Of a stretch of DNA of 64,000 nucleotides, positions 20,945 through 37,708 are shown one piece after another. Numbering within the stretch: position 1 is the first letter of the stretch; each line of letters starts with the position of its first letter. The DNA is from Planctomycetota bacterium. Lineage in GTDB: Bacteria > Planctomycetota > UBA1135 > GCA-002686595. A program made the position numbers and the translations under genes. The stretch is taken from assembly GCA_040880665.1 (NCBI GenBank), contig JBBDIB010000061.1, positions 24,688-88,687 of the forward strand, given 5' to 3'. The notes beneath the pieces are model-generated. The model ran no database searches and was not told where the DNA came from. It saw nothing but the letters and a program-made list of their open reading frames with translations.

Positions 20945-20978
20945 CGGTGTCGCCAGGGGGGGTCTGGGGTTGGGTGGA

Positions 20979-21121
20979 GGTCCGGTCGACGTGGTCGAGC
21001 CGGCGACGCGTTGGGCGCCGCGAGGAGAAGTCGACATCTCAACCGGCGCTGCGTCCGGGGGGAACCCTTCGACATCGATTTCCTGCGCGTGACGCCTCGA
21101 GTCGAGGTCGAAGGCTTAGGA
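20979..21121. repeat. 143-bp direct repeat, copy 1 (R1)
   Basis: Aligns by eye without gaps to 24438..24580, roughly four-fifths identical. Long identical runs include ccggtcgacgtggtcgagccggcgacgc, cgacatctcaacc, gcgtccggggggaaccct and cgacatcgatttcctgcg. It lies between the gdh start and the stop of the psi-gene at 21130. Confidence 0.8.
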
Positions 21122-21129
21122 GGTCGGGC

Positions 21130-21710: not shown

Positions 21711-21842
21711 TCAGAGAAACCACGCACACATCTTGACTTTGGCTCGATGCTGTTTCTAGTATGCGAAACCGCGCGGTGCTCATGGGCCGCACCTTGTGTC
21801 GTCTTCTGTGTGCCACTTCCAACCTACTACTCAAACATCACG

Positions 21843-22277: not shown

Positions 22278-22365
22278 TGTATCGGCCTCTCCATGCGTTA
22301 TATTGGCTGGATGTGATCGTCGATGCATCTGGCAGGGTGCTGTCCACGATCTTTTCTGAGCTCAA

Positions 22366-24408
22366 GTGAAGTCTCTGCGCGTTGCTTGTGGCCTGTTTAT
22401 TGCGCTCCTTGCACTCGTGTGCTGGTTCGCTGCAGACACCGATCTGGTGCTTTCGCGACGCATTGGTGGCTCGAACGAATTTGAAGCGAATCCAGGTCGC
22501 GCTCATCAGTCAAATGCGAATGCGGTTCAATCCACGCTCATGGAGTCGCGGGAGATGGTGCGCGTGGACCGCTCGCCAGAAGATATTCCTGACGGGCTCA
22601 GCATTTTGGTGCGCATTGAAGGTGACCCTTCCTTGGTCAACTGCGTGCTGCCGCTGGAATTGACGCTGGGCCAAGAAGCATCAACGGAGCGCGAAGCGGT
22701 CTTTCACACGAAGCTTACCAGTCCGTCCGAAGCTGCTCGTCTATCGGGCTGTGCTGGACAGGTACTCAGGTACACCGCGACGAGCGTGTCGAGCAGTTTC
22801 GAGCAATCAGGCCTCGTGCAGACTTCGGCCGATGGGCGCGGGACGATAACGATCATAGTCAGCGTAGTCAAAGTCGGTGTAAGATTCGTTCGAACTCACG
22901 GAGATGCAGGTCAAGCCCTTTGGAGGAGTTGCGACGGCATCGAACTGTTTCCCCACCAATACTCGCCGCAACTCTTTGGGTTCGAGATCGGCGCGTTGGA
23001 GCGCGGAGGAGCCTTCATCTCGAGTGATCTAGGGGTTGCCTACTATGACCCACCCGCGGTGGCAAACCACCCGCAGGAGGCCGATCGGGTCGAGTGGCTG
23101 GCAGGAGCTGATGTCCGCTTCGTTTCAACCGTGAGTGACCTCAACTCGTTGCCGGTTGCAGCAGAATTTCTATTGCCCGCGTCTCCTCGTCCGTTCCGTG
23201 TAGCAACGATCCTGGAGGGCACCCGGTCTGGCTACCTGCAAGGTTTACCGGCGCATCGTTGTATCCGGGTGACGGCAGGGTCACCCCCAGTTAAGTCGTG
23301 GTACTTAAGGTTAAATGCGAACGAAGTTTACGAGTTATTCGTAGGGTCAATTGCTGGCTGCCCCGTCAAGTTCGCCGTGACTGATGGTCAGTCACAGCCA
23401 GTGCCTGGGGTGCTGCTTTTCATTCGCCCGGTCTCTGATGTGTCTGAAGCGTGCATTCACGATGACGCACTCAGATCGTTAGGCCAAGAATCCGTTAGGC
23501 GAGTCGCAACGGATGAGGGAGGAATAGCCAGTATTGAAGGTCTGTCCGAAGGGCGCTGGTCCGTCGGTTCCAGGCATGGAGAGGGCAGCGCGTTTGTTGC
23601 CCCTACAGAATTCGAGGCCGACGCAAAAGGAGTTCACCTTCATCTCGTTACTCAGGCAGGCCCGGGCTTGGTTGGCCGCATCGTGGGACCGAGTCAAGAA
23701 GGCCTGCCGAACTTCGAAGTCTTGCTTCGTGCGCACGACTCGACAACTAGCGTCCATGCAATCAGCGCGGCCGCGGGACGCTTCAGCTTTCCAGGGTTGG
23801 CTCCCGGCGAATACCAATTGATGGCCAGGTCCGCAGGGAGTCGATCCTACGCCGTCTGGGAAACGGTGATCGCGCCCGATCCAGATCTCCTAATCATCGT
23901 CGAAGCCAGGGCAGCCCTTCGCGGGCGAGTCATTGGAGCAGAATCGCTGCCTGAAGGAGAGACCTTCCTGACGTTGTACACGCGGGAGACGAGCGGTCGC
24001 TACCTGCAGGTGTCTCCCCACGTGGAAGTCGACCCGGCGTACGAACTCGTCCTCGATGTCCCGCCGCGGAAAGACATTTGTCTTACCTTTTCCTCCACGC
24101 GCGGCCTTCGGTCCGCCGTGTCGGTCGTCACGGCCCCGCCGGGCTCCGAGTCCACCTTCGAGATTAACCTCGCGAGTCCCTCGTTTGTCAAATTGACAGG
24201 TCATCCCCGGCGCCCAGCCAGCTACCAGCTCGTCCATGAGCAACTTGGTCTCGTCGCCACGGGCCAATTGATGCCCAAGGCGACTTCGGAGTTGCGAGTG
24301 CCCCGCGGCGCGTATATGTTCCACTCTAGCTCTTGGGGCAGCGAGGGGGCGTGGACGCAGTTTCCTTTCATCGCAACTGACGCCGTTGTGATCAAGGTGG
24401 GCGAATAG
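22366..24408 (+). CDS. Large exported protein with carboxypeptidase-regulatory-like (Ig-like beta-sandwich) repeats
   Basis: 680 aa with an N-terminal hydrophobic anchor (LRVACGLFIALLALVCWFAA). Segments such as GRIVGPSQEGLPNFEVLLRAHDS...AAGRFSFPGLAPGEYQLMARS fit the CarboxypepD_reg pattern. Lower-GC codon usage. Confidence 0.6.
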   Translation: MKSLRVACGLFIALLALVCWFAADTDLVLSRRIGGSNEFEANPGRAHQSNANAVQSTLMESREMVRVDRSPEDIPDGLSILVRIEGDPSLVNCVLPLELTLGQEASTEREAVFHTKLTSPSEAARLSGCAGQVLRYTATSVSSSFEQSGLVQTSADGRGTITIIVSVVKVGVRFVRTHGDAGQALWRSCDGIELFPHQYSPQLFGFEIGALERGGAFISSDLGVAYYDPPAVANHPQEADRVEWLAGADVRFVSTVSDLNSLPVAAEFLLPASPRPFRVATILEGTRSGYLQGLPAHRCIRVTAGSPPVKSWYLRLNANEVYELFVGSIAGCPVKFAVTDGQSQPVPGVLLFIRPVSDVSEACIHDDALRSLGQESVRRVATDEGGIASIEGLSEGRWSVGSRHGEGSAFVAPTEFEADAKGVHLHLVTQAGPGLVGRIVGPSQEGLPNFEVLLRAHDSTTSVHAISAAAGRFSFPGLAPGEYQLMARSAGSRSYAVWETVIAPDPDLLIIVEARAALRGRVIGAESLPEGETFLTLYTRETSGRYLQVSPHVEVDPAYELVLDVPPRKDICLTFSSTRGLRSAVSVVTAPPGSESTFEINLASPSFVKLTGHPRRPASYQLVHEQLGLVATGQLMPKATSELRVPRGAYMFHSSSWGSEGAWTQFPFIATDAVVIKVGE

Positions 24409-24437
24409 CCCTTTGCTCGACGTAATGCAAGGGAGAA

Positions 24438-24574
24438 GGACCGGTCGACGTGGTCGAGCCGGCGACGCACGTGGCGCCGCGAATGGAAGGCGACATCTCA
24501 ACCCGCGCGGCGTCCGGGGGGAACCCTGCGACATCGATTTCCTGCGGCGCGAGGTGCGAGTCGAGGCGAACGGC

Positions 24575-24580
<6 letters not shown>
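24438..24580. repeat. 143-bp direct repeat, copy 2 (R2)
   Basis: Counterpart of 20979..21121. It occupies the whole convergent intergenic space between the 680-aa ORF stop (24408) and the acr3 stop (24575), and includes the last two acr3 codons plus the stop (ggcttagga). Confidence 0.8.
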
Positions 24581-25591
<1,011 letters not shown>

Positions 25592-25651
25592 GACGTCGAG
25601 CGCGGTAGGAGAGTGGCGAGCGCCGCGTGGGACGGCGCGGTACGGGGTGGG

Positions 25652-26488
25652 TTAGCGATTCGGGATCATCAGCACGGGTCGGCCCGCTCTCTTGCTGAGG
25701 GCGCGCGCCGTGTGCCCCATGCCGGAATCGCCGCGACCGGCCTTGCCGACGACCAGCAGCGATGCGTCGCGCTCGCCGGCGAGACGCAGGATCTCTTCGC
25801 TCGCCTCACCTTCGACGACGAACGCCTCGCCCGTTCCTCCGCCCTGCGTGATGCGCGAGTGGACTTCGCCGAGGGCCGCCCGGGCCATGGTGGGCCAATC
25901 GGCAAAGCGTGCTCGGTCGTCCGCCGACGTCACGTGCATCACATCGACCCGTCCGCCGAGGCTTGCGAGTTCGATGGCTGCCTCGTGTACGGGCCGCGCC
26001 GCTGCCGTCAGGTCCGAGGCGACCAGGACGTGACGTAACGTGTTGCCGCAGGTCAACTGGCACCGGTCCCCAACGCCGTCGAGCGGCTCGATCCACTCGA
26101 TCAAGACGGGTACGGAGGAGCGACGTAGAACCTTGCGCGCGACGCTGCCCAGAAAGAGTCGTTCGAGGACGTTCTGGCTGCGGTTGCCGACGACGAGCAG
26201 GTCGACGCCGACCTCGGCCGCGCGCGCCGCGATCGAGGCGCCCACATCGCCGGCGGTTGCGACGTGGATATCGACGATCGTGCCGCGCGCTCGCAGCGGC
26301 TCCGCGAGCGCTTGAAGCCGTTCTCGCTGTCGCTCCTCCTCTCCGAAGGCGGGACCTTGTGCGTAGCCGACCTTCGCGAAGTAGACGAGCGACACGCGTA
26401 CGACCCCCCAGGTGGCGAGGTCGGGCGCGCACTCGAGCAACGGGACGTCGGAGTCGAGGTCGACGGCGATCAAGGCGTGTTGGAACAC
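25652..26488 (-). CDS. Universal stress protein (tandem Usp domains)
   Basis: 278 aa with two UspA-like halves (ALIAVDLDS...LLVVGNRS and VLVASDLT...[10 protein letters not shown]...PVLMIP). Confidence 0.75.
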
Positions 26489-28287
26489 GAGGACTCCTGG
26501 GGTACGTGGGGATGGTCGGGTTGCACGAGGCTCCGGAGTGCTGCGACGCCCGTCGGCTCGTCGGCCGACCAGGGCACGAGGAACACGCGCTCAGCGTGCT
26601 TCGCTTTCACCGCGCGGATCTCGGGCAGCTCGGCCGCGGCTCTGGCGCGAAGCAACGGATCGGTGGTGCCCGTCGCCGCGAGGCTGCGGTTGATGACCCA
26701 GCCATAGGGCTCGATCGCGGCGCGGCGCAGGTCCTCCTGCAGGTGCGCGGCTTCCTGGACGGGCGTCGTCTCCGCCAAGGTGACGATCACGACGCGCGTC
26801 TCGGCGGCGTCCTGGAGCCGCATGAGCGGTGTCCCCAGTCGACTGCCGGCGCCGGCCTGCCGCAGCGTCTCGCGGTGGTACGAACCCGCCGCGTCGAGCA
26901 GCAGCAACGTGTGTCCGGTGGGCGCCGTATCCATCACCACGATCTCGCGCTTCGACGAGAAGACGGCGCGCGAGAAGGCGTGGAAGACCGCGACCTCCTC
27001 GGTGCACGGCGAGCGCAGGTCTTCCTCGAGGAGCGCCAGCGCATCGTCGTCGAGCGTCGCGCGCGATCGCGCGAGGATCCGCTCGCGATAGGCTTCGGTC
27101 TCGGCCAGGGGATCGATGCGGCTGACGCGCAGGTGGGGCACCTCTTCCGCCAGCGTGCCCTCGAGGTGCGCGGCGGGGTCGGTGGTCGTCAGGTGGACGG
27201 GCAAACCGCGGCTCGCCAACTCGACCGCGACGGCGGCGGCCATGGTCGTCTTCCCGACGCCGCCCTTGCCCATGAACATGACGAGCCCGTGTCCGGCGGC
27301 GGCGACCTCGTCGACGAGCGACGAGAGCGGCGCGACGTTTTCCAGCACGTCGGCGGAGGCGACGCGCGGCTCGCTCAGGCCGTGGAACGGTGCTTGGTCG
27401 AAGAACGAAGCCAGCGCGTCGAGACCCACGAGGTTGTGCGGCTTCAGCGGCACTTCGAAGGAGGGCAGCGCCGCGAGGCCCCGAGGCATCGCCGCGAGCG
27501 CGGCTTGCCCGAGGGCCTCGAGCCGCAGCGCCAGGGCGTCGTCGCGATCGCTCGCGTGGAAGACGCCGTTGATCAACAGGAACTGGTTCGTGACGCCCAG
27601 CTTCTCCAGCTCGACGCGCGTTCGCTCGGCCTCGCTCAGCGCGCTGCGCTCGGCGCGCGTGACCAGGACGAGCGTCGTCTCGGAGGCGTCGCTCAACGCG
27701 GCGAGCGACCGCGCGTAGCGCTCTTGGCTGTTCTTCAAGCCCGACAGCGGCCCCAAGCACGAGGCACCGCGCTCGTTCGTCTCGAGGAAGCTCGTCCAAG
27801 CGGCGGGTAGCTGCAAGAGGCGCAGCGTGTGACCGGTGGGCGCCGTGTCGAAGACGATGTGGTCGAACTCGCGGGCGGTCGCGTCGCCGCTCATCAAGCC
27901 GGTGAACTCGTCGAAGGCGGCGACCTCGACGGTGCAAGCGCCGGAGAGCTGTTCCTCGATCGAAGCCACGGCGCTCGCGGGCAAGACGTCTCGAACCGGG
28001 CCGATGACGCGCTCGCGATAGGCGCGCGCGGCGGCCTCGGGATCGATGTTCAGCCCGAAGAGGTTCGGCTCGCCGGTGATCGGCGTCGGCGTCGCCAACA
28101 GCTCGGTCGCGAGCACCGCGTCGAGGTTCGATGCGGGATCCGTGCTGACGATCAGCACGCGCTTTCCGGCGCGCGCCAAGCCGAGCGCCGTCGCCGAGGC
28201 GGCCGAGGTCTTGCCGACGCCGCCCTTGCCCGTGAAGAACAAGAACGGCGTCGGCTGCGTGAGTCGCAGCAGTGTGTCGGTGCTCAT
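26470..28287 (-). CDS. arsA: Arsenical pump-driving ATPase ArsA
   Basis: Two homologous halves, each with a P-loop (FFTGKGGVGKTS; MFMGKGGVGKTT) and a DTAPTGHTLRLL/LLLL signature. The ATG at 28287 overlaps the arsD stop. Confidence 0.92.
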   Translation of the reverse strand: MSTDTLLRLTQPTPFLFFTGKGGVGKTSAASATALGLARAGKRVLIVSTDPASNLDAVLATELLATPTPITGEPNLFGLNIDPEAAARAYRERVIGPVRDVLPASAVASIEEQLSGACTVEVAAFDEFTGLMSGDATAREFDHIVFDTAPTGHTLRLLQLPAAWTSFLETNERGASCLGPLSGLKNSQERYARSLAALSDASETTLVLVTRAERSALSEAERTRVELEKLGVTNQFLLINGVFHASDRDDALALRLEALGQAALAAMPRGLAALPSFEVPLKPHNLVGLDALASFFDQAPFHGLSEPRVASADVLENVAPLSSLVDEVAAAGHGLVMFMGKGGVGKTTMAAAVAVELASRGLPVHLTTTDPAAHLEGTLAEEVPHLRVSRIDPLAETEAYRERILARSRATLDDDALALLEEDLRSPCTEEVAVFHAFSRAVFSSKREIVVMDTAPTGHTLLLLDAAGSYHRETLRQAGAGSRLGTPLMRLQDAAETRVVIVTLAETTPVQEAAHLQEDLRRAAIEPYGWVINRSLAATGTTDPLLRARAAAELPEIRAVKAKHAERVFLVPWSADEPTGVAALRSLVQPDHPHVPQESSCSNTP

Positions 28288-28661
28288 CAGCAGCACCGCG
28301 GTTGCTTGGCGACGGGCGCAGCTTCGTCGGCGCAGCATCCGCTCGCGGCGGACGCGACGCCGGCCCAGGTCGCGAGTTGGACCCGGGAAGGATACACGCC
28401 GCTGCTGACGACGACGTCATCCGCCTTGATCAGGGGCAACGCCGACGCCCCCCGATGCTCGAGCGCAGCCTGCGCGTCGGCGTCCCCGACGAACGCCCCC
28501 GGCTCCTGCGCGAGGTTGAAGCGCCGGACCGCGACGCCCTGGGCGGCGAGCCACTCCAAGTCGGCGGAGAAGCGCGCCAGGTCGGGATCGACCTCGGGTC
28601 CACAGACTCCGGTCGAGCAGCACATGGCGGGATCGTAGACGGTGATGTTCTTCGTGTTCAT
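28287..28661 (-). CDS. arsD: Arsenic metallochaperone/repressor ArsD
   Basis: 124 aa from the ATG at 28661. N-terminus MNTKNITVYDPAMCCSTGVCG carries the Cys12-Cys13-Cys18 triad. Cys-rich C-terminus. Confidence 0.88.
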   Translation of the reverse strand: MNTKNITVYDPAMCCSTGVCGPEVDPDLARFSADLEWLAAQGVAVRRFNLAQEPGAFVGDADAQAALEHRGASALPLIKADDVVVSSGVYPSRVQLATWAGVASAASGCCADEAAPVAKQPRCC

Positions 28662-28771
28662 CGGTGCCCCCTTGTAGCGGCCTTCGCCGCCTGTTGCTTG
28701 GGATGGTATCGGTAATCGTCGAAAGACGATGGCTGGGTCGTCGAGACGGCAGCTCACTTTGGAATGCGGTC

Positions 28772-29212
28772 TTAGGCCGGGAATTCCTCGACGTCGCCAT
28801 CGGACCGCACGACGCGCAGCGTGCCCTCGAGCTCGCACGCGCTCGCCAGCGTGTTGGTGATCGTGCCGAACAGACGCACGTTCTTGTGGAGCAGTGCGCA
28901 GCGCGAGGCGGGCTCGTCGCTCGCGACCTCGAGGACGTAATGCGCGCGAACGATCGCAGGTGGCGAATCGCGGCGCTCGAGCTCGATCTCCGCCTTCGCG
29001 CTCGAGTAGCTGAAGGGCAGGATGTGGCGGAAGCGTTCCACGTTCTTCAGCAGGCAGGCTGCGAGCGAGCCCGCCAAGAGGTGCGCGGGTCCCGGGACGG
29101 AGTCGCCCATGCCCCGACTCCCGTCGAAGGCGATCGTGGCTTCCAGCGTCTCGATCTTGGCCGTGCCATCCGGGACGTTGAAGCCCTTGGCTCGGTAGAT
29201 GCTCGTACTCAT
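28772..29212 (-). CDS. OsmC/Ohr-family protein
   Basis: 146 aa. PAHLLAGSLAACLLKNV and RCALLHKNV segments resemble the two conserved Cys regions of OsmC-like peroxiredoxins. Confidence 0.65.
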   Translation of the reverse strand: MSTSIYRAKGFNVPDGTAKIETLEATIAFDGSRGMGDSVPGPAHLLAGSLAACLLKNVERFRHILPFSYSSAKAEIELERRDSPPAIVRAHYVLEVASDEPASRCALLHKNVRLFGTITNTLASACELEGTLRVVRSDGDVEEFPA

Positions 29213-29228
29213 CGTGCGCCTCCCGACG

Positions 29229-29567
29229 TCATTTCAGCTCCTCGATCAGCGCGCAAAACAGGCCGATCGCACCCGGTTCGACGCAGTAGCAGACGCGCGG
29301 TCCCTCGACCTCGCCCCGGATGAGGCCCGCTTCCTTCAATTGCTTCAGGTGCTGCGACACCGTCGACTGCGCGAGCGGCAACTCGTCCACGATCTCACCG
29401 CACACGCACGTGTCGCGCCGCAGGAGCAACCGCAGGATCGCCACCCTGGCCGGGTGCCCCAGCGCCTTCGCGAGCCGCGCAAGCTGCTCGTTGGCATCTC
29501 TTTCTCGCTTCGGCACCACCAGCTTCGGCGAAGCCGGCGGGCAGCGGGTGAGGGTCTTCTTCGGCAT
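29229..29567 (-). CDS. arsR: ArsR/SmtB-family metalloregulator
   Basis: 112 aa. Metal-site CVCGEIV immediately before the HTH ([19 protein letters not shown]). First gene of the ars cluster. Confidence 0.88.
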
Positions 29568-29590
29568 GGGGGACTCGTTCTCGAGCGTTC

Positions 29591-29606
29591 ATCGTAGATG
29601 TACGAT
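29591..29606. promoter_or_regulatory. Candidate ArsR operator (perfect 6-4-6 palindrome ATCGTA-GATG-TACGAT)
   Basis: Perfect inverted repeat 24-39 bp upstream of the arsR start codon. ArsR/SmtB repressors bind dyad sites overlapping their own promoters. No experimental or consensus support is available here. Confidence 0.3.
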
Positions 29607-29670
29607 CTTCGCGGCGTAGGTCAAGTAGGAAAATCATCTGCGCGACTCGCACGAGCGCACCGCGGAACGC

Positions 29671-32043
29671 TCACTCGACGACACACCGAACGATGAGGGA
29701 GCCCTCCGACCCAACGGCCAGCAGCTCCGGCTCGAACCGAAGGCGCCGGCCTCCGAGCTCGATGGGCGCGATCTTGATCCAGAGGTCGGTGGCATCCCCG
29801 AGGTCGAGCAGAGCGCGACCCGACTCGTCCGCACGCACGACGGCGGATCGCTCCCCGTGCAGGCCGTGCAAGCCGTGCAGGCCGTTCGCCTTGGAGCTCA
29901 TGACGCCGATCGAGAGGTCGACGCCGCGCGCGGCTACGGGCAAGTCCCGGAACACGAGCTCGACCTGCTGGCGGTGCCCCACGACCACTCGCTGTGGGCT
30001 TCCGTCCGGCGTGCGGCGCGGCAGGAAGGCTTCCGTTCCAAGACCTTCGACCGCCGCCGTGAGCTGCTCGAGGTCGGAAGAGATCCATCCTTGCCAGTAC
30101 GCCCCACGCACGGCGACGGGCGGAGCGGCGGGATCATGGGTGCGCAGCTCGAAGGCACGCACGGGTTCGCCCGTCGTGCCGTCGATCACTTCCAGCGACA
30201 CGTTGAGCGGTTCGGGAGCTTCGAGCGTGACGCGACCGCCGTCGGTCAGCACGTGTCGAGAGGCAACGATCGGGTAGGCGGAACGCAGGTAGGGGTCCGT
30301 CGCGAGCTCCGGTGCCAAGGCGACCTCCACCTCGGCCGGCCCCGCGGCGAGACCGCGCGCGACGAAGTCCCCGGCTGAGTTCGTCGTGCCCGCGAGCGAG
30401 CGTCGCGTCGCGCCGATCATCCCAGGTTCGGAGATCGGGGCGAGCGCGCCGCGCGGCGACTCAGGCCAGATCCGGACGGACATCCCCGGCAGCGGGCGTC
30501 CGCTCCGCGAGCGTACGGAGAACGTCGTGTCGATGGACTCGACCAGAACGACGTGCAAGGCCTCCGCCGCTCCCGTCATGGAGAGCGCACGGTTGCGGCT
30601 GACGGCGACAGGCGAGTAGCCCGGCGCCGCGACTTCGAACGAGCCGATGTCGAGCGCCAGCGGTAGCCGGATGTGCCCTGTCGCGTCCGCCGCGAAGACT
30701 CCGCTCGAAGTCGCGGCGCGCGCCGCCGTGATGGGGGATCCACCCAAGTCGACGACGCGCACGAGTTGGTGCTCCGCCGACCGCAGCGCGAGCGTCGCGC
30801 GCACGTCGCGCTCGTTCGCGGCAACCTCGGCCTCGTCGAACGCGCCGCACGAGTTGTGCGCTCGAAGCCAGATCTTCCGCTCGCTGGGCAGTTCGAGGGT
30901 GACGGGCGAGCCCGCGGTGAGAGCGATCTGGTGGCGAGCGAGCGACGGCTCGAGCTCCGTGCCAAGTGGCGCTTCCTCGACGCCGAGCACGAGCGTGGCG
31001 CCTTGGGAGCAACCGGTGACATCCTCGCACGTGATCGTCGCCGACCGTCGCCCCGGCAACGCGACCGCGTCACCGGCTACTTGCGACAAGCGCAGGACGC
31101 CGGGAAACGTCGTCGGTGAGGTCACGAGCAACGGCTCGTCGTTTTGCACCCACGACGGCACGACCAGCGACGCGGAATCCGGCGCCGCGCGAGCGATCTC
31201 GTACCCGTCTGGCGACGCGAGAATGACGCCGTTCACCGGCGTGATCGCATCCATTTTGGTGAAGTACAGACTGCGTCCCGCCGCGATCGAGCGCAGGACG
31301 ACATGCACCGTTTCCTTTGGCGGGCCACACAGGGAAAGTTCTGCGCGCGCGAACTGCGGGTGCAGAAGGACGGCGGTCCCGTTCTCACACGGACAGGAAG
31401 TGAACTCCGCGAGGCCGTTCGCGTCGGACATCACGGTCAACTCCGGTGCTGCAGCCACCGTCCCCTCGGCGCGGCGAGGCAGCCAATGAGCTCGAGCACC
31501 TTCGATCGGATTGCCGCCGGCGTCGCTCACCCAGAAGCACCTGGAGGTCAACCTTTGCACCCAGAGGACGAGCTCCTCGCCGCGGAGAACTTCGAAGCTC
31601 GATTCGACCGCCATCCAGGCATCGTCCGTCGAGCGCAGGCTCCAGCGCCCCGGAGCGACTCGCAGAACTCCGTTTGCGTCGGCTGTCGACGCGCTCTCAC
31701 CCGCGACGCCCGAGAGTACCCAACGCGATCCAGCCGCCGGTCGCATGTCTCCAGATGAGAGCAGTTGCACGTTACCACTGCCAGAGTCGCTCGCTGGCAC
31801 GCCCTGCACCCGCGCGACGACCGGTTCGCGGCCCCGCAGTCGTGTTCCGGCAGCTTGCGTCGCGCCGCTGCGCGCATCCTCGCCGGACACATCTCTCGAT
31901 CGAGTTGCTCCAGTGAGCTCGACCTCGTGTCCTCGCCGCGCGACGGTCAACGCGGTCCAGGCCACCAACCCGCCGAACACCGCGACGGCTACCAGCCACC
32001 GCAACGCACGTGAGCCGCGAAGGAACCGCTGCCCGGAAGTCAT
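29671..32043 (-). CDS. Large exported/membrane-anchored protein with carboxypeptidase-regulatory-like repeats
   Basis: About 790 aa (ATG at 32043; TTG at 32076 is possible). N-terminal anchor ALRWLVAVAVFGGLVAWTALTV. Repeated beta-sandwich-like modules. Its C-terminal ~190 aa are paralogous to the psi-gene at 21130..21710. A 9-bp x3 microsatellite (29855..29885) encodes GLHGLHGLHG. Confidence 0.65.
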   Translation of the reverse strand: MTSGQRFLRGSRALRWLVAVAVFGGLVAWTALTVARRGHEVELTGATRSRDVSGEDARSGATQAAGTRLRGREPVVARVQGVPASDSGSGNVQLLSSGDMRPAAGSRWVLSGVAGESASTADANGVLRVAPGRWSLRSTDDAWMAVESSFEVLRGEELVLWVQRLTSRCFWVSDAGGNPIEGARAHWLPRRAEGTVAAAPELTVMSDANGLAEFTSCPCENGTAVLLHPQFARAELSLCGPPKETVHVVLRSIAAGRSLYFTKMDAITPVNGVILASPDGYEIARAAPDSASLVVPSWVQNDEPLLVTSPTTFPGVLRLSQVAGDAVALPGRRSATITCEDVTGCSQGATLVLGVEEAPLGTELEPSLARHQIALTAGSPVTLELPSERKIWLRAHNSCGAFDEAEVAANERDVRATLALRSAEHQLVRVVDLGGSPITAARAATSSGVFAADATGHIRLPLALDIGSFEVAAPGYSPVAVSRNRALSMTGAAEALHVVLVESIDTTFSVRSRSGRPLPGMSVRIWPESPRGALAPISEPGMIGATRRSLAGTTNSAGDFVARGLAAGPAEVEVALAPELATDPYLRSAYPIVASRHVLTDGGRVTLEAPEPLNVSLEVIDGTTGEPVRAFELRTHDPAAPPVAVRGAYWQGWISSDLEQLTAAVEGLGTEAFLPRRTPDGSPQRVVVGHRQQVELVFRDLPVAARGVDLSIGVMSSKANGLHGLHGLHGERSAVVRADESGRALLDLGDATDLWIKIAPIELGGRRLRFEPELLAVGSEGSLIVRCVVE

Positions 32044-32231
32044 GGCCGCCCGTCGGTCCACCCCGTGATCTTGCAAGCTGCTGGTTCAGCGCAAGCGCCG
32101 AGGCCAGCGATCCCAACGCGCCGCGCCCGATGACGACTTTCGCTACCCATGCACACGATCGTAGAGCTTCTGGGGTCTCCCGAGGCATCGTCGAGTGGTC
32201 ACTTGGTGAACTCCTACCGCGCGTCTGGATG

Positions 32232-32545
32232 CTGAGGGGCGGCAGGCTGCGTAGGATTCGGGATTGCATGAATGCTCGGCGACACACAGGACGTGCCACG
32301 GACGCTTTGCGCCATCTCTGGGTGCGGGCGCCCAACTGGGTCGGGGATCTCGTGATGGCGACGCCGGTGCTGGAGGCCTTGGTGGGGAGTTCGCGCTTCG
32401 AGCGCGTCTCGATCGGTTGCGCGCGCACTTGACCGGCGTGCTCGACCGGCTGCCGTGGGTGGATCGCGTGGTGACGTTCAAGGGTGCACGCGACGAGGTT
32501 GCGGCGCTCGGACGCGCGGCGCCGGATGGGATCTTGCGCATGGGG
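32232..32545 (+). pseudogene. Duplicated 5-prime fragment of the GT9 heptosyltransferase gene (frameshifted, truncated)
   Basis: MNARRHTGRATDALRHLWVRAPNWVGDLVMATPVLEALVGSSRFERVSIG matches the N-terminus of the intact gene at 35631. A stretch of about 115 bp is nearly identical at DNA level (32311..32425 versus 35673..35788). A 1-nt deletion follows, and homology (LPWVDRVVTFKGARDEVAALGRAAPDG) continues in another frame. The fragment ends where the low-GC DNA begins. Confidence 0.8.
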
Positions 32546-32765
32546 GCCTCTGGGAGGGATCTAGCGCGTCATCGCAGTTTTCACTGAAGGAGCCTCGCCA
32601 GGTAAAAGTTCTGTATCGAAGTGCAACCGGTTCGGCGGCTTCGCCTAGCTTAGGCTGAGATCTACTGGAACTGTGCTCGCCGTGGGCGCCAGGGCAAGTG
32701 GCTCGCTGGGTTCTTGTGTACGCTAAAATAGGTTTCGTCCTCAGTTCACCCTTTTCGGGGTTCGC

Positions 32766-34349
32766 ATGTTGGGAAGGATTTTCCACCTAGCTCAATTGTT
32801 CGCAGTGAATCGGTACGCATGTGTTGTGTGCGCCGGATTTGCCATATCGCAGCCATCGTGCGCCCAGCTTTTTCAGTTGCGCGAGCTCAACTTCGGAAAC
32901 CCTGGGCCGGTGTATATAGATGGTGAGCTGGGCCTCGTGTATAAAAAACCACACTATCATGAGGATATATCAACTCCATTAGACTCCTGGGTTGACGTTT
33001 TCCCTATGGATGATGTTAACGATGGGAAGGATGCGAGTGTGCCCATGGTGTATGGGCCAGGAGAACGCCCAATCCCCGTGTTCGTGGAGTTCTACGCGTT
33101 CAGCCCTGACCCTTTAGAGGTCTACCATGTCTTGGTCCGGGATTTGCAGCTCAACAATACTTTCGAGGGTGTCTTGGCTCCAGGACCCTGCGCGGGGCTA
33201 GTGGGCATCCCTGCTGTGTGCTATCGTGGCACGCTCACGGAATGTGAATACGTGCAAAATTTCCCTGAGGGTATCAAGTTCTACCCTAACTACGAGTTTG
33301 TTATCGAAGTGCATACGGGGGACCTGCAGCAAGATCCAAGCCCGTGCCCCGTCTATGACACTCCTGTAGCCAACACTGGAATGAGCACAAACAAAGTCTA
33401 TGTGCTAAGAACGGGAACAACAGCCGAGCAGCAGGTGCCGTGGGAGTCTGTTTGTGAGCTGTCATGCATTGCTGCGGATGATGATAACAAGCGTGATGAG
33501 ATCCTGTTCTCGCTCAAAGAATATTTCGAAACAGCACAGATCAATCGCAAGTCCCGAGATGGTCGATGGAAGCCTGATGGGTTGAGGCTTGGCTACTGGA
33601 CTGATGGTTACGAAAGCCAGTGGCTTGCTCGCATCTCTGATCCGAGTCAAGATGGGTTGTTGCAAACGGACACTGGTAGCGGGACTTGCGGAGCGTGGGC
33701 TTTCCTGTTTTTTGCATGCGCGAGGGTTCAGGGGCTTGCTTTGGAGCCCATCGATTTTAGCGCGCCTAGCGGGAATGGGGACATTTTTGGCGGTCTATTG
33801 ACATATCCGTATCCAGTACATGGTATTCCGGGGACTCATCCAGCCAACAGATTTTTTGTGGAAAATGTTGTGATTGGAAACACAACTCCCCCTGGAGATC
33901 CAAATCAGCCACATAACCCACCCTGGAACCTAGCCTTGTATGGCGGTCCGGGAATGCCCAACCCTCCAGGCTCAAACCCAAACGTCGGGCTAACATACGA
34001 TGACGGGATTGCTGGTCAAAACACTGCAAACCCCGAGAGGCAGATGTTTTCAAATCATTGCCAGGTATTTTTTAGCGCAAGAAATGCCGGAGCCGCGAAA
34101 ACGCTCGTGCTGCTAGATCCGTCATACCAAAAATCCGTTGTGGCCCAAACTCCCTCCTATGATCACTCTACGCAACTTGCCATTTTGTGGCAGATGCATC
34201 TCAGTTTTCAAAACGCTTGGATTCCGGCCTTGGCGTGGATCAATACGTCCGGGTCGAGTGATGCGAGCCTTGCCGCTTCTAGGGCCACGCTGGATCCATC
34301 GCACCCGCTGTGCTATGTTGGGTCTACGTTTCCAGCGGCGAATCAATAA
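32766..34349 (+). CDS. Exported protein with possible transglutaminase/papain-like Cys-His-Asp core
   Basis: 527 aa with a signal-like N-terminus. GSGTCGAWAFLFFACARVQGL resembles the transglutaminase-core GxCxxFAxLFxxLxRxxGI motif. Downstream, NHCQVFF and LVLLDPSY could supply the His and Asp. The Cys-to-His spacing is longer than in typical members. Confidence 0.45.
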   Translation: MLGRIFHLAQLFAVNRYACVVCAGFAISQPSCAQLFQLRELNFGNPGPVYIDGELGLVYKKPHYHEDISTPLDSWVDVFPMDDVNDGKDASVPMVYGPGERPIPVFVEFYAFSPDPLEVYHVLVRDLQLNNTFEGVLAPGPCAGLVGIPAVCYRGTLTECEYVQNFPEGIKFYPNYEFVIEVHTGDLQQDPSPCPVYDTPVANTGMSTNKVYVLRTGTTAEQQVPWESVCELSCIAADDDNKRDEILFSLKEYFETAQINRKSRDGRWKPDGLRLGYWTDGYESQWLARISDPSQDGLLQTDTGSGTCGAWAFLFFACARVQGLALEPIDFSAPSGNGDIFGGLLTYPYPVHGIPGTHPANRFFVENVVIGNTTPPGDPNQPHNPPWNLALYGGPGMPNPPGSNPNVGLTYDDGIAGQNTANPERQMFSNHCQVFFSARNAGAAKTLVLLDPSYQKSVVAQTPSYDHSTQLAILWQMHLSFQNAWIPALAWINTSGSSDASLAASRATLDPSHPLCYVGSTFPAANQ

Positions 34350-34358
34350 GGAGACGCC

Positions 34359-35456
34359 ATGATAAGGATAGCTTATGGGCTTTGTGGCTTCGCCTCCGTA
34401 CTTTTTTGCTTGCTCTCTCTCTATGCTGAGTCGAGATGTGCTTTGCCGCAGAACGAGCCCGCCACTGGCAAGGAAGCATTTGCCTGGGAGGGTGATCGTG
34501 CGCTAAGCATAAGGATCGTATCGGACGAGCTGGACGTTTGCTTAGGGCAGATGATAACGATCAATGGAGAGCCGCTCGGCTTGCGTCCATCTCAGCAGCT
34601 AAGCCAGGAACGTGATTGCGAATGGGGAGCTCGTCACTACCTTTCTTTGTCTTCGTGTTACAGCAGTCAAAGAGACGAAGCATTTGTGGCCACGCTCTCC
34701 GGCGAAGGCTTCATACGAGATATGGAAGTTGTCGCATTGGGGCATGACAGCGCCGGCGAATGGAGTGAACGGCGAAGGTGGGGGCTAGACACAATATTCA
34801 ATAGCGCTGGTATGCCGACTCAGCCGACAAGACTCCAGGTCCTAACGGATGAATACGGCAATCCAATGCTCTTGTATGCATGCTCAACGGCCTCAATTGG
34901 GCTGCTAGATCTGTCGGAGGAGGAAAATCGTGTAAGCCATGGGGTAGAAGGCTTTCCGCGTAGCACGAGGAGGGCCTTGTGGACAACGGAAAGTTACGGC
35001 CTAGGCGTTGCTTGCTCGACCGGAATGCATGGTCTAGCGATACTTTGCAATGCCCGTGATATCTTAAGTTTACACCTCTTGCTGGGCTCCCCTAGTCTCG
35101 GATGGAGAGAGGCGAGGCTTGCCGGCGCGAATATTGACAACTTGCCCGCCAATCAAGAATCCATGAGCGCGGATGACAGTCATGTGTACTGGGTCGGATC
35201 CCGGGGGGATGCCACCGTTCAAATCATGCGCGCATCTTTGAACGTTGAGGCCGGTATTCTGTTCGGCGAGCCTCATTATGATCATTCAGTCGTTCTCCAC
35301 GAGGTGGAGTCGCTGTCGCTAGCTGCGCCAGGCACACTGCCCTCAGACTACTGGTTGGCAAGTACTTCAAGCGGAGTCCAATTGCTGACGAGAGATGGTG
35401 GCGTAGATCTGCACCTTCCTGGGAATGATGATGCTTGGGAGGTGTTGAGCGACTGA
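34359..35456 (+). CDS. Exported hypothetical protein
   Basis: 365 aa with signal peptide MIRIAYGLCGFASVLFCLLSLYA. It begins 10 bp after the preceding ORF. No family recognised. Confidence 0.45.
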   Translation: MIRIAYGLCGFASVLFCLLSLYAESRCALPQNEPATGKEAFAWEGDRALSIRIVSDELDVCLGQMITINGEPLGLRPSQQLSQERDCEWGARHYLSLSSCYSSQRDEAFVATLSGEGFIRDMEVVALGHDSAGEWSERRRWGLDTIFNSAGMPTQPTRLQVLTDEYGNPMLLYACSTASIGLLDLSEEENRVSHGVEGFPRSTRRALWTTESYGLGVACSTGMHGLAILCNARDILSLHLLLGSPSLGWREARLAGANIDNLPANQESMSADDSHVYWVGSRGDATVQIMRASLNVEAGILFGEPHYDHSVVLHEVESLSLAAPGTLPSDYWLASTSSGVQLLTRDGGVDLHLPGNDDAWEVLSD

Positions 35457-35630
35457 GCGCTTGACACCCAGACCGCCGAGGTTTGGGCGTTGAGCCTGAG
35501 GCTCCCCCCAAGTTCGGTCCAGCAGTTCCTGCGATGACGCGAGGGCGTTCGCAGCGTTCGGGTCCTTGGTGCCTTCGAAGTCGTCTCTGACATGTTGGCT
35601 ACAGGCCGACTGCGTACCATCCAGGGTCGA

Positions 35631-36683
35631 ATGAACGCCGCTCGCCATGGAAGACGTCCCGCGCACGAGTTGCGCCATCTCTGGGTGCGGGCGCCCAACT
35701 GGGTCGGGGATCTCGTCATGGCGACGCCGGTGCTGGAGGCCTTGGTGGGGAGTTCGCGCTTCGAGCGCGTCTCGATCGGGCTGCGCTCGCACTTGGCGGG
35801 CGTCGTCGAGGGGTTGCCGTGGGCCGATCGCGTGGTGACGTTCAAGGGAGCGCGCGACGAGATGGCGGCGCTCGCGCGGGCGGCGCCGGATGGGGCGCTG
35901 TTGTTGACGAACTCGTTCTCGGCGGCGCTGCGGGTCTGGCGGGCGGGCGTGCCGCTGCGTGCGGGGACGGCGCTCGGTGGACGCGGCATGTTGCTGACGC
36001 ATCGGCTGGTGCCGCCCTCGCGAGAAGGGCGCCGGGTGCCGATTCCGACGGCGCACTTGCTGGCGGATCTCGCGGGCTTGGTGGGGGTGACGGTGCCGGA
36101 TCTGGCGCCGCGGCTCGCGGCGGACGCCGGTGTGCGTGCGCGCGCGCGAGCGGTGTTGGTGGAGCACGGCGCCGCCGCCGATGCGCGCTTCGTCCTGTGC
36201 GCTCCCGGCGCCGCCTTCGGCGCGGCGAAACTGTGGCCGCCGGAGCGCTTCGCCGCCGTGCTCGATCGACTCTTCGACGAACAGGGCTGGATCGGCGTCG
36301 TGACCGGCGCGCCCAGCGAAGGACCCCAGATCGCGGCCGTCGTCGATGCGTGTCGCCATCCGGTGGTCTCGTTGGCGAAGGCCGAGCGCGACCTCGCGCT
36401 GTTGCGCGGGCTCGTCAGCGAGTGCGAGCTGCTCGTCGTCGGCGATTCCGGACCGCGTTGGTTCGCGGCGGCGTTCGACGTGCCGTGCGTCAGCATCATG
36501 GGCCCGAACTTCCCCGAGCTGACCGCCACGTCGCTCGAGCGCGCGCGCATCGTGCGGCGCGACGATCTCGAGTGCTCGCCGTGCCTGCGGCGCGTCTGCC
36601 CGCTCGAGCATCACGCCTGCATGCGCGAGATCGGCGTCGACGAGGTCGTCGCCGCGGCGCTCGACGTCGTGGGGACCCGCTGA
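35631..36683 (+). CDS. Glycosyltransferase family 9 (LPS heptosyltransferase, WaaF/WaaC-like)
   Basis: N-terminus LWVRAPNWVGDLVMATPVLEAL is the typical GT9 start. The C-terminus has a GDSGPRWFAAAFDVPCVSIMGP motif. The ATG at 35631 is supported by the duplicated copy; the ATG at 35592 is also possible. Confidence 0.85.
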   Translation: MNAARHGRRPAHELRHLWVRAPNWVGDLVMATPVLEALVGSSRFERVSIGLRSHLAGVVEGLPWADRVVTFKGARDEMAALARAAPDGALLLTNSFSAALRVWRAGVPLRAGTALGGRGMLLTHRLVPPSREGRRVPIPTAHLLADLAGLVGVTVPDLAPRLAADAGVRARARAVLVEHGAAADARFVLCAPGAAFGAAKLWPPERFAAVLDRLFDEQGWIGVVTGAPSEGPQIAAVVDACRHPVVSLAKAERDLALLRGLVSECELLVVGDSGPRWFAAAFDVPCVSIMGPNFPELTATSLERARIVRRDDLECSPCLRRVCPLEHHACMREIGVDEVVAAALDVVGTR

Positions 36684-37708
36684 TGTTGGGTAGTGCGTTG
36701 CCGCGCGGCGCGCGCGTCGTCGTCTCACTGCCGCGTTGGATCGGCGACGCGCTCGAGGTCGAGCCGGCCGTCGCGGCGTTGGTCGAGCACGGCGCCGCGC
36801 TGACGCTCGACGCCGACGGCGGCGTGCGGCAGCTCTATCGAGCGCGCTTTCCCGAGCTGGCGTTCGGCGAACCCGACGGAGCGCGGCACGACGTCGCGGT
36901 GCTGTTCCGCGGCTCGTTCCGAAGCGCGTGGCGGGCCTGGCGCGCCGGCGTGCCGCGGCGCGCCGGGCTCGAGTCCGACGCGCGCGGCTGGCTCTTGACC
37001 GACGGCGCGCGGCCCGCGCTGGAACGCGGCGCCGTGCCGCTGGGCCTGGGACGCGCACGCGCTTGGCCGCGGCGCCTGCCGCGCTCGGTCGCCGCCGAAG
37101 CGGTCGAGCTCGTCGGCTGGCTCGGCGTCACGGTGCGTCGGCGCCGCCCGCGCTTCGAAGCGTCGCCCGCCGCGCGCGCGGCCGCGGAGGCCCACCGCGG
37201 CGCGACGCTCGTCAACCTGGGCTCGCGCGCGGGTTCGGCGAAGGGCTTCCCGCCGGAGTTCGCAGGCCGCCTCGTCGACGCGCTGGTCGCGCGCGGACAC
37301 CGCGTCGTCGCCGTGTGCGCGCCGCAAGAGCACGGCGTCGCCGCGGCCGCGCTGGCCCGAGCAACGACGCCGGTGCCGCTGGTCGAGCCCGACCTCGTCG
37401 GCCTCTTGGCGCTCTTCGAGGTCGCGCGGGTCGTCGTGACGCCGGACGGCGGCGCGCGTCACATGGCGGCGATCGCCGGCGCGCCGCGCGTCGTCGCGTT
37501 CGCGCCCACGGACCCGCGGCACTCGGTGCCCGCCGGCGGCGCGCTCGAGCGCGCGTTCACGGCTGACATCGCCTGCTCGCCCTGCCACGCCGAACGCTGT
37601 CCACTCGACGGCGCCGAGCACCTCGCCTGCTGGAGCACGCTCGACCCCGAGAACCTCGCCGATGCCGCCGATTCCCGCGCTAGCTTGCGGCCTTGTCCAC
37701 CCGCTTAG
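36683..37708 (+). CDS. Glycosyltransferase family 9 (second heptosyltransferase-like)
   Basis: The ATG at 36683 overlaps the previous stop (ATGA). VVVSLPRWIGDALEVEPAVAAL and VVTPDGGARHMAAIAGAPRVVAFAPTDP match GT9 N- and C-terminal motifs. Confidence 0.75.
   Translation: MLGSALPRGARVVVSLPRWIGDALEVEPAVAALVEHGAALTLDADGGVRQLYRARFPELAFGEPDGARHDVAVLFRGSFRSAWRAWRAGVPRRAGLESDARGWLLTDGARPALERGAVPLGLGRARAWPRRLPRSVAAEAVELVGWLGVTVRRRRPRFEASPAARAAAEAHRGATLVNLGSRAGSAKGFPPEFAGRLVDALVARGHRVVAVCAPQEHGVAAAALARATTPVPLVEPDLVGLLALFEVARVVVTPDGGARHMAAIAGAPRVVAFAPTDPRHSVPAGGALERAFTADIACSPCHAERCPLDGAEHLACWSTLDPENLADAADSRASLRPCPPA

Follow-up and report, generated by a model that had tools for sequence, protein, structure and literature searches.

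In this uncultured planctomycete, 14.7 kb separate a glutamate dehydrogenase gene (gene X) from the family-9 glycosyltransferase gene GT9a, and in that space two diverged versions of a single ancestral interval lie interleaved. We think it somewhat probable that the feature is a recombination scar rather than a self-contained mobile element, left when sister-lineage DNA was integrated under the guidance of homology and without a recombinase. The two versions meet at two joints, both non-homologous (24430/24431 and 32530/32531), and the repeated segments follow one another across the locus in the order R1, R2, R1, R2, R3, R3. The features are given below, with positions counted in the window, the whole 64,000-nt stretch of DNA that was analysed.

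19661..20944, minus strand: glutamate dehydrogenase gene X, which is conserved and anchors the locus on its left (PF00208 and PF02812)
20972..21128, no strand assigned: R1a, X-upstream region, copy 1 (self-BLAST: 157 nt, 81.5% identity to 24431-24587)
21128..21695, minus strand: R2a, pseudogene fragment of an 801-like gene (its final ~195 codons), directly abutting R1a
21696..24430, plus strand: islet A, low GC, two ORFs
24431..24587, no strand assigned: R1b, X-upstream region, copy 2, overlapping the final codons of the ACR3/SBF gene
24588..29668, minus strand: native-GC block of arsenic-resistance-type genes with an unassigned 26.5-28.2 kb stretch (Pfam, Logan gene calls)
29671..32076, minus strand: 801-aa ORF, containing R2b (29669-30255)
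32241..32530, plus strand: R3a, truncated, frameshifted GT9a 5' end (27 nt upstream and 88 codons)
32309..32415, plus strand: core, left copy (107 nt; partner 35672-35778)
32531..35603, plus strand: islet B, low GC
32766..34349, plus strand: 527-aa protein, predicted exported
34359..35456, plus strand: 365-aa protein with a hydrophobic N-terminus, no assigned function
35604..35894, plus strand: R3b, 5' end copy continuous with the working GT9a
35631..36683, plus strand: GT9a, intact family-9 glycosyltransferase, heptosyltransferase-like (PF01075, E = 1.9e-24)
36683..37708, plus strand: GT9b, second GT9 gene, overlapping the GT9a stop codon at its start

The 5' end of GT9a is present twice in direct orientation (R3a and R3b; 291 aligned nt, 84.9% identity, one 1-nt gap; self-BLAST E = 8e-86). 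An initial annotation of this DNA had described such a duplication at 32232-32545 and 35597-35905; the duplication is real, and its measured bounds (32241-32530 and 35604-35894) lie slightly inside those, covering 27 nt before the ATG at 35631 and 88 GT9 codons. The left copy, described as frameshifted by a 1-nt deletion and truncated, is indeed out of frame, as a single G is missing at 32416, and its homology stops abruptly at 32530. The right copy starts just as abruptly at 35604 and runs on into the resident gene, which is intact as claimed: it encodes 350 aa from 35631, gives a full-length match to PF01075 (profile positions 8-245 of 247) and aligns over its full length with the GT9a of a related locus, L082 (71% identity, residues 5-338). 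The stub R3a, the two islet B genes and GT9a follow one another on the same strand. Within the repeat lies a nearly identical core (32309-32415 versus 35672-35778), previously put at ~115 bp and here measured at 107 nt with a single mismatch, and homology continues past it on both sides, for 68 nt 5' and 115 nt 3'. One synonymous difference was seen in the core against ~10 expected from its flanks (P = 6e-5), so that the core represents a recombination tract between already diverged copies and not conservation.

Between the two R3 copies lies islet B, of 3,073 nt, whose GC of 0.537 compares with 0.695 ± 0.017 in core 3-kb windows (z = -9.4). Among 3-kb windows sampled every 100 nt, none is lower in GC, and the GC3 of its two ORFs is 0.54-0.56 versus 0.80-0.94 in neighbouring genes. 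These windowed statistics uphold the much lower GC (53.7%) claimed for the ~3-kb insert. The two exported proteins claimed for it correspond to ORFs of 527 and 365 aa, both with hydrophobic, signal-like N-termini by a hydropathy check rather than a dedicated signal-peptide predictor. The 527-aa protein combines an N-terminal beta-sandwich with a domain that is common to 26 remote homologues and contains conserved Cys308/His431/Asp451; it has one clear homologue (P0002, 44% identity), and its AF2 model (pLDDT 68.5) gave no significant PDB match. The 365-aa protein matched no family in Pfam, PHROGs or NCBIfam and shares 25% identity with the gene following P0002 at locus L081. L081 carries a homologous two-gene cassette at an unrelated locus, also in a low-GC islet, to which the trinucleotide signature of islet B is nearest. 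Flanking repeats, an integrase neighbour and islet A genes are all absent from the L081 cassette, and because it lacks flanking repeats, the duplications belong to the planctomycete locus and not to the cassette.

Islet B is not alone. A second islet, islet A (21696-24430), is likewise flanked by a split duplication, here of 724 nt (R1 plus R2). Its GC is 0.58, and its two ORFs (21843-22277, 144 aa; 22366-24408, 680 aa with a CarboxypepD_reg domain by Pfam) have GC3 values of 0.63-0.65 and hydrophobic N-termini; the 680-aa protein had no relative in JGI metagenomes. R2a and R2b align over 587 nt at 75% identity (self-BLAST), and homology at the islet A repeats ends at 21695 and resumes at 24431, both abruptly. 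Exchange inside R3 is shown by its 107-nt tract; R1 and R2 contain no such tract. An arsenic-type block is found between R1b and R2b and is missing between R1a and R2a; its GC is 0.685, its trinucleotide signature is core-like, and its genes include an SBF/ACR3-type transporter (24575-25591), Usp, ArsD, an OsmC-like protein and ArsR (29229-29567). The 801-aa ORF, which public annotations call at 545 or 647 aa, showed a weak CarboxypepD_reg match and no homologue among 5.8 billion proteins. The 8.1 kb separating islets A and B duplicates the entire inter-genic interval in diverged form, so that an islet inserted at a gene end is only half of the structure. The gene-end insertion proposed in the initial annotation stands in its partial duplication around low-GC DNA, but not in treating islet B as isolated, since islet A is flanked by an equally diverged duplication.

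Comparison with related loci indicates how the interval is organized elsewhere. Gene X, whose start we set at 20944 (its first 150 residues have 87% protein identity to a contig-truncated L082 orthologue), lies upstream of and divergent from GT9a in 37 relatives, and the gap between the two genes is 0.2-1.3 kb in 35 of them, with a largest value of 3.5 kb. R1a has a motif in common with the L082 intergenic region, and the GT9a-GT9b pair is kept in all 80 genome-scan loci. Relatives had been named as the place where a tandem GT9 paralogue decaying in place might be seen; among the 82 related loci fetched, all distant (≤71% protein identity), none has a second, tandem GT9a 5' fragment. The nearest GT9a relative among the 5.8 billion proteins searched has 71% protein identity, too distant to display either version by itself; judging solely from such distant synteny, the site would have been empty before insertion.

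Searches for mobility features agreed with the earlier statement that no recombinase, tRNA or inverted repeats are present, as profile scans, ARAGORN/Rfam and a repeat search all lacked a credible match. Large ORFs in the 21-40 kb region matched no recombinase family in Pfam, PHROGs or NCBIfam, and neither an integrase nor an excisionase was found there. The sole ARAGORN tRNA call sits within GT9b and has no Rfam support, flanking or terminal inverted repeats amounted to short matches at chance level, and there was no phage or plasmid match. A transposon or insertion sequence was considered separately and rejected: there is no transposase, terminal inverted repeat or short exact target duplication, and the repeats measure 157-587 nt with 75-85% identity.

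Several other histories could produce parts of this anatomy, and the divergence between copies bears on two of them. Synonymous divergence is equal in both repeat pairs (dS 0.505 in R2; 0.49 in R3 outside the core), which is what an origin of one copy in a diverged relative would give. Their divergence has the look of having accumulated for the most part under selection: omega between copies is 0.39 (CI 0.27-0.56), and of the three indels in the 587 nt of R2a two are in-frame deletions. Decay of one copy in place is disfavoured. Such a duplication of gene ends, with redundant copies decaying and low-GC DNA acquired independently between them, strikes us as distinctly unlikely. It would explain the disabling mutations in the stubs, namely the R3a frameshift and, in R2a, a 1-nt frameshift plus one stop (TGG to TGA), and the interval of omega reaches 0.5, the minimum expected if one copy evolved neutrally (P = 0.10). 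An HMM of 119 GT9a orthologues scored the stub R3a at 89.4 bits versus 92.8 for the working copy; simulated stubs reached the observed score in 12.5% of cases with 9 neutral hits, but in 0.6% with 18. On the other hand, the R2a pseudogene shows no fall in GC3 (R2a and R2b both stand at 0.827), identical direct repeats of 290-724 nt placed 3 kb apart should collapse well before dS 0.5, foreign DNA would have to hit both duplication joints exactly, the interleaved repeat order is not the product of one tandem duplication, and the fetched relatives lack the second fragment. Slightly more credible, though still unlikely, is a single capture, in which a contiguous low-GC island A+B broke between its 680-aa and 527-aa genes and received the 8.1-kb homeologous fragment (24431-32530) by end joining or template switching, with later gene conversion making the core. 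One event would then account for the equal dS in both repeat pairs, the insertion itself needs no homologous exchange across diverged DNA, and neither joint shows homology or microhomology; the four islet genes also all lie on the plus strand upstream of GT9a, with a low-GC signature common to both islets. However, random capture would hardly pick out a fragment of this very locus without guidance by homology, the core demands a separate conversion event, A and B are contiguous in no sequence (L081 has the B cassette without the A genes), and the trinucleotide signature of islet A is no closer to islet B than to other islets.

The remaining alternatives turn on the core and on the assembly across it. 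A Logan assembly of run SRR27977663 matches window positions 32387-35699 and 28212-32336 at 100% identity and reproduces the frameshift and both islet B junctions (32530/1 and 35603/4), R3a being recovered in contigs L083 and L084; this independent confirmation covers the islet B junctions and not those of islet A. The Logan k=31 contigs all stop 28-30 nt inside the 107-nt core, so the order across the core is known from the NCBI assembly alone, and the graph fits a 3,363-bp circle as well. We consider it improbable that islet B and a hybrid GT9a fragment exist only as such a separate circle, or only in a co-occurring strain, and were threaded into the assembly through the core, although a graph of the form U-core-V-core-W fits U-core-W plus a loop equally and an intact GT9a also results from the alternative phasing. 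Lacking a replication gene, a 3.4-kb circle could not be maintained, and islet A repeats the same architecture without a long identical run (longest seen ~28 nt, in the R1 alignment). Moreover, the joints of the R3a 3' end with islet B and of islet B with the R3b 5' end are read-supported and repeat-free, so that islet B is attached to GT9a-like ends on both sides regardless, and an insert present in only some cells would be population heterogeneity of the same integrated structure. Very improbable, in our estimate, is the remnant of a site-specific element that targeted the GT9a 5' end, brought a replacement end and later lost its integrase. The near-identical core in diverged flanks does resemble attL/attR, and the working GT9a 5' end comes from the islet side, but the large ORFs scanned at 21-40 kb include no integrase or excisionase, no credible tRNA or inverted repeats were found there, phage or plasmid matches are absent, and the L081 cassette lacks an integrase neighbour and repeats. 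The R1/R2 duplication also has no identical core, and homology extends to both sides of the R3 core where a replacement end requires one side only. The homology on both sides and the dS of ~0.5 between copies instead favour the Campbell-type homologous route that the initial annotation had offered as one possible explanation.

The integration of sister-lineage DNA that we prefer would proceed as follows. One version of the interval (24431-32530) comprises the X-upstream region, the arsenic-type block and the 801-aa gene in intact form, followed by the sequence upstream of GT9a and its codons 1-88. Of the other, reduced version there remain a short X-upstream piece with the 801 remnant (20972-21695), islets A and B and the working GT9a 5' end from 35604 on. 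A sister lineage with the other version would have supplied DNA that paired with the resident locus via the homologous gene ends and was joined by the host's own recombination. At islet B, homologous exchange in the GT9a 5' region would leave the 107-nt tract by crossover or conversion, and one further non-homologous joint would be needed at 32530/32531; the route could be Campbell-type single crossover of a circularised fragment or, with the same topology, a linear fragment integrated by homology on one side and illegitimately on the other. Islet A may have been joined likewise, at 24430/24431. The outcome would be an intact GT9a start from one version, with the start of the other left as a truncated, frameshifted stub. 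The incoming piece could be either the islet or the 8.1-kb segment, and the identity of the donor as a sister lineage, the order of events and a circular or linear intermediate are likewise proposed from the arrangement of the locus. Against this reading, homologous exchange at 75-85% identity is inefficient, with perfect runs of at most ~28 nt seen in R1, two rare events or one complex event are needed, and microhomology is not visible at either non-homologous joint (0-1 nt shared by eye, with boundaries uncertain by ~3 nt). A bolder variant, which we also hold to be improbable, is that islets A and B are recombinase-free mobile cassettes that use a piece of a host gene end as a homology handle, alternate between circle (3,363 bp for islet B) and integrated form via host RecA, and spread between related lineages. 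If so, the contigs ending in the core would reflect co-existing circular and integrated forms.

A mechanism of this kind is already known, and the present case is an instructive one. After conjugation in E. coli, single crossover of circularised DNA at lacZ produced locus duplications of 109-950 bp, in 56 of 60 events by PCR screen and with 14 sequence-confirmed (PMC3240628). As there, direct copies of the homology segment enclose the insert (R3 at islet B; R1/R2 at islet A), the repeats are in the same size range (290 and 724 nt), one copy is cut at the end of the incoming fragment while the other continues into an intact gene, and a dedicated recombinase is unneeded. Unlike at lacZ, the planctomycete copies are 15-25% different, making the exchange homeologous, and the event is natural, old enough for pseudogenisation and found twice, interleaved, with the circle never observed. 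Homology-facilitated illegitimate recombination is a second parallel, known from Streptococcus pneumoniae, Acinetobacter baylyi and Pseudomonas stutzeri (summarised in PMC3240628) and also proposed for T6SS effector-immunity arrays and Rhs orphan arrays (PMC5361080). It shares with our locus a conserved gene end as anchor, foreign DNA at a non-homologous junction, displaced old gene-end fragments that remain, and no involvement of an integrase. In contrast, recipient DNA is lost in classical events, which have microhomology of 3-10 bp, whereas the planctomycete locus keeps a duplicate and no microhomology is visible at its joints; its anchor is also a 5' gene end, not a constant 5' part with a variable 3' tip. 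Integrase elements that insert in a gene end and bring a replacement end, such as e14 or phage 21 at icd and the tRNA/tmRNA islands, likewise duplicate part of a gene, identical in a core and diverged beyond it, and the gene stays functional. The planctomycete locus differs from these in lacking an integrase or att-type structure, in having homology on both sides of the core and in its 5' rather than 3' target.

For annotators, a regenerated gene end alone does not imply an integrase-driven island, and because the repeat is longer than the assembly k-mer, integrated and excised states look alike in short-read graphs. We are aware of no description of the ways in which Planctomycetota take up flexible DNA. 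The locus offers a clean natural case in which foreign-looking, low-GC genes for predicted exported proteins would have become fixed beside essential envelope genes without a mobile-element enzyme. Diverged gene-end stubs of this kind would record incoming DNA from a related lineage with a different version of the locus, and they could serve genome-wide as markers of homeologous recombination.

The 5′ end of GT9a, one of a pair of family-9 glycosyltransferase genes (GT9a and GT9b), is present twice in direct orientation. Repeat finding, pairwise alignment and self-BLAST all recovered this repeat (R3; 32241-32530 and 35604-35894), with 84.9% identity over 291 aligned nt and a single 1-nt gap (E = 8e-86). 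It takes in the first 88 codons and the 27 nt preceding the start codon (35631). The left copy is frameshifted by the loss of one G at 32416, and its homology stops at 32530, while the right copy runs into an intact 350-aa protein matching PF01075 over almost the whole profile. The alignment and self-BLAST thus bear out the duplication proposed in the initial annotation, with a frameshifted, truncated left copy and an intact right one. Identity is uneven along R3, at ~70% over the first 68 nt, 106/107 in a central core and 84% over the last 115 nt. The core holds 1 synonymous difference where ~10 are expected (P = 6e-5), which marks it as a tract of crossover or gene conversion that formed after the copies had diverged, and not as mere conservation. 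An exact search of JGI metagenome contigs with a 30-mer of the core gave 0 hits.

Between the two copies of R3 lies islet B (32531-35603), 3,073 nt of 53.7% GC compared with 69.5 ± 1.7% in 3-kb windows of core DNA (z = -9.4), so the drop in GC seen initially is backed by windowed statistics. Third-position GC is 0.54-0.56 in the islet and 0.80-0.94 in neighboring genes. As the initial annotation had it, no mobility gene is visible: the large ORFs scanned in 21-40 kb matched no recombinase family in Pfam, PHROGs or NCBIfam, and no meaningful inverted repeats surround the islet. The lone ARAGORN call, a tRNA-Gly(CCC) at 37004-37084 (-) within the GT9b coding sequence, had no Rfam support and most likely reflects a spurious prediction in GC-rich coding DNA.

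A whole-window repeat search with self-BLAST identified two further direct repeat pairs, R1 and R2, together with a second low-GC islet (islet A).

Repeats, islet and motif of the interval between the GDH gene X (-) and GT9a (window positions unless stated)
20972-21128 and 24431-24587: R1, 157 nt, 81.5% identity, the region directly upstream of X
21128-21695 and 29669-30255: R2, 587 nt, 75% identity, the last ~195 codons of an 801-aa ORF (-)
21696-24430: islet A, 58% GC, two ORFs with signal-like N-termini, between left R2 and right R1
32309-32415 and 35672-35778: R3 core, 107 nt, 106/107 identical
21040-21090 and 24500-24550, and ~560-620 of contig L082: motif upstream of the GDH gene, GGGGGAACCCT ... 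GATTTC

The left copies of R1 and R2 adjoin each other; between the right copies there are 5.08 kb of native-GC DNA, which include the arsenic-resistance-type genes described below. Islet A is flanked by a split 724-nt duplication (R1 plus R2), whose dS matches that of the GT9a pair, and this changed our interpretation of the finding. The order in the window is X, left R1, left R2, islet A, right R1, an arsenic-resistance-type block, the 801-aa ORF (carrying right R2), the GT9a upstream region, left R3, islet B, and right R3 continuing into GT9a, with non-homologous junctions at 21695/6, 24430/1, 32530/1 and 35603/4. The left R2 is a pseudogene, disrupted by one frameshift and one TGG-to-TGA stop and shortened by two in-frame deletions. 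We conclude that the interval consists of two interleaved versions of one ancestral interval, one degraded and carrying the low-GC DNA, the other intact save for a truncated GT9a. The event has to be read at the level of the entire X-GT9a interval, not of islet B alone; of the proposed insertion of an islet at a gene end, the duplication around islet B stands, but islet B is only half of the structure.

The arsenic-resistance-type block (24575-29668) encodes an SBF/ACR3-type transporter, Usp, ArsD, an OsmC-like protein and ArsR. It sits exactly at the R1/R2 joint of one version, and the other holds ~13 nt resembling the last ACR3 codons; either one version lost the block or the other gained it. 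The GDH-upstream motif, present in both R1 copies and in L082 (a contig carrying a related locus), may be a regulatory element. The 680-aa protein of islet A had no relatives in JGI metagenomes, and no homologue of the 801-aa protein was found in a search of 5.8 billion proteins. The idea that these two proteins are paralogues was dropped, as they share no similarity.

We compared this arrangement with related loci. All relatives of the GT9 gene are Planctomycetota of the Rohdeia/Engelhardtia clade, with a best genome hit of 63% protein identity and a best match among 5.8 billion proteins (P0004) of 71%. In L082, the closest relative, the order is GDH gene X (-), a Kdo-kinase-family gene (PF06293; 718-1536) whose stop overlaps the GT9a start, GT9a, GT9b and enoyl-CoA hydratase. 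In 37 relatives that have all four anchors, X and GT9a lie 0.9-1.3 kb apart in 29 cases, 0.2-0.3 kb in 6, and 2.5 and 3.5 kb in the remaining two; in the window the distance is 14.7 kb. Most other relatives have a gap of a size that would fit the Kdo-kinase-family gene; the gene itself is absent from the whole 64-kb window. A tandem GT9 paralogue, which the initial annotation had set against an insertion, was looked for among related loci, and a second GT9a 5′ fragment was found in 0 of the 82 related loci fetched. By distant synteny, everything within 20.97-35.6 kb appears lineage-specific; the relatives are distant enough (71% protein identity at best) to make a nucleotide-level empty-site comparison impossible. 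Tandem GDH paralogues occupy 18345-19557 and 19661-20870 (61% nucleotide identity), and the X fragment of L082 matches both, at 87% and 49% protein identity. A higher-GC donor for GT9a and GT9b was considered and dropped, their GC excess over the flanks being 0.063 against a clade-typical 0.054 ± 0.016.

The window lies within a 99,828-bp NCBI record, and Logan contigs from run SRR27977663 provided an independent assembly. Two of these, identical to the window at 100% (L083, 32387-35699; L084, 28212-32336), confirmed the frameshift and the junctions at 32530/1 and 35603/4. All three contig ends at issue stop 28-30 nt into the 107-nt core, the behavior that a k=31 graph predicts, and the path across the core is consequently supported by the NCBI assembly only. 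Another path would give a chromosome with a hybrid, intact GT9a and a 3,363-bp loop. Lacking replication genes, such a circle could not maintain itself unaided, yet it is conceivable that occupied, empty and excised forms coexist at the islet B locus.

Next, we asked how the copies had diverged, using dN/dS with a bootstrap in place of codon-position counts, which were not decisive. By the Nei-Gojobori method, dS and omega were 0.505 and 0.40 in R2, and 0.49 and 0.36 in R3 outside the core. The matching dS values suggest that a single donor-recipient divergence or a single episode lies behind both pairs, within wide confidence intervals. Neutral in-place decay of one copy predicts omega of at least 0.5 and falling GC3. 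Pooled omega was 0.39 (bootstrap CI 0.27-0.56; P(omega ≥ 0.5) = 0.10), and the two R2 copies had the same GC3, 0.827. The frameshift-corrected GT9a stub scored 89.4 bits with an HMM built from 119 orthologues, vs 92.8 for the working copy; in simulations, random hits in the post-core part reached the observed score in 0.6% of cases at 18 hits and 12.5% at 9. Together these results favor, short of proof, that most of the divergence arose under purifying selection on both copies in separate lineages, with the disabling mutations coming later.

In-place duplication of the gene ends is disfavored by these selection tests and also by the repeat order (R1, R2, R1, R2, R3, R3); moreover, initially identical direct repeats would be unstable, which is hard to reconcile with the structure. 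A transposon origin was excluded. Site-specific integration is unlikely, given the lack of an integrase, homology on both sides of the core and a second repeat pair without a core. The remaining explanation would be host-mediated recombination with homeologous DNA of a sister lineage, for which the initial idea of a recombinase-free, homology-driven event proved broadly right: no integrase was found, exchange occurred within R3, and homology flanks the core.

Such recombination could have taken several forms. Two Campbell-type single crossovers could have integrated circularized fragments, one carrying R1′, R2′ and islet A and the other islet B and R3′; equivalently, two halves of one long donor molecule could have entered by one-sided homologous-plus-illegitimate integration. 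Alternatively, the 8.1-kb intact version (24431-32530) would have been inserted into a once-contiguous island of islets A and B. All three would yield the same product with two non-homologous joints each, and would differ in which version was resident and where the homologous exchanges took place. We lean slightly toward the two homology-guided forms, because they explain the same-locus origin of both versions and because the core shows exchange inside R3. The contiguous-island form seems improbable to us; trinucleotide signatures group all low-GC islets of the window, in one signature unlike that of core DNA, and do not establish that A and B ever adjoined each other.

Islet B encodes proteins of 527 and 365 aa, each with a hydrophobic, signal-like N-terminus. 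The 527-aa protein (32766-34349) has one clear homologue among 5.8 billion proteins (P0002, 44% identity), and a full HMMER scan yielded 26 remote homologues sharing a domain at about residues 200-460, which no Pfam family covers. Cys308 is invariant in this domain, and His431 and Asp451 are kept in at least 90% of sequences, resembling a cysteine-hydrolase triad, and this could be a secreted cysteine-hydrolase-like domain not yet described. Dockerin domains occur in 2 of the 26 remote homologues, on which Pfam scans were otherwise uninformative. An AlphaFold model (pLDDT 68.5) predicts an N-terminal beta-sandwich, and a fold search returned only generic beta-sandwich matches, none at E < 1e-3 and none significant in the PDB. 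No link of the cargo to phage, plasmid, PHROG or defense-type genes was found.

P0002 sits on contig L081, from the same sequencing run (SRR27977663), and the gene after it encodes a distant relative of the 365-aa protein (25% identity). This pair (L081:7000-10060) also forms a low-GC islet, of 49-58% GC within 70% GC DNA; the locus is unrelated, with a GH1 gene on one side and a KpsF-type SIS/CBS gene on the other. The pair may represent a second copy within the same genome, or lie in a co-occurring relative. There is no GT9a-like piece at this locus, and no flanking repeat was detected by blastn self-comparison; with tblastx, compositional noise dominated the self-comparison. For the first gene of the pair, the N-terminal portion matches in another reading frame (7381-7551), suggesting a frameshift or sequencing error.

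Further low-GC stretches occur in the window. One (37709-40300; 60.5% GC, minimum 52%), between GT9b and the enoyl-CoA hydratase gene, contains two ORFs (-) of 257 and 174 aa with hydrophobic N-termini, and showed no flanking duplication and no family hits. In relatives this gap is usually 20-110 nt and genes inserted there have native GC, and the notion of a clade-wide low-GC hotspot was accordingly dropped. Another, at 9-11 kb, encodes a 690-aa protein (9040-11112, -) matching the BbrUII/HgiDII restriction-enzyme family (E = 1.8e-80, under the curated cut-off), and this region is likely to be a mobile restriction-modification islet. That islets A and B are self-propagating cassettes carrying homology handles has little support, because the L081 cassette has no handle and the other islets of the window have no flanking duplications.

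Integrase-driven islands such as e14 or phage 21 at icd regenerate a gene end. The likeness to these is superficial, as their recombinase and one-sided homology are not found here. Among known systems, Campbell-type single-crossover integration and homology-facilitated illegitimate recombination come closest. The second of these has been put forward for both T6SS effector-immunity arrays and Rhs orphan arrays (PMC5361080), and experiments built to catch illegitimate events mostly gave single-crossover duplications of 109-950 bp (PMC3240628). The interleaved X-GT9a interval would add a natural case to an already known type of event.
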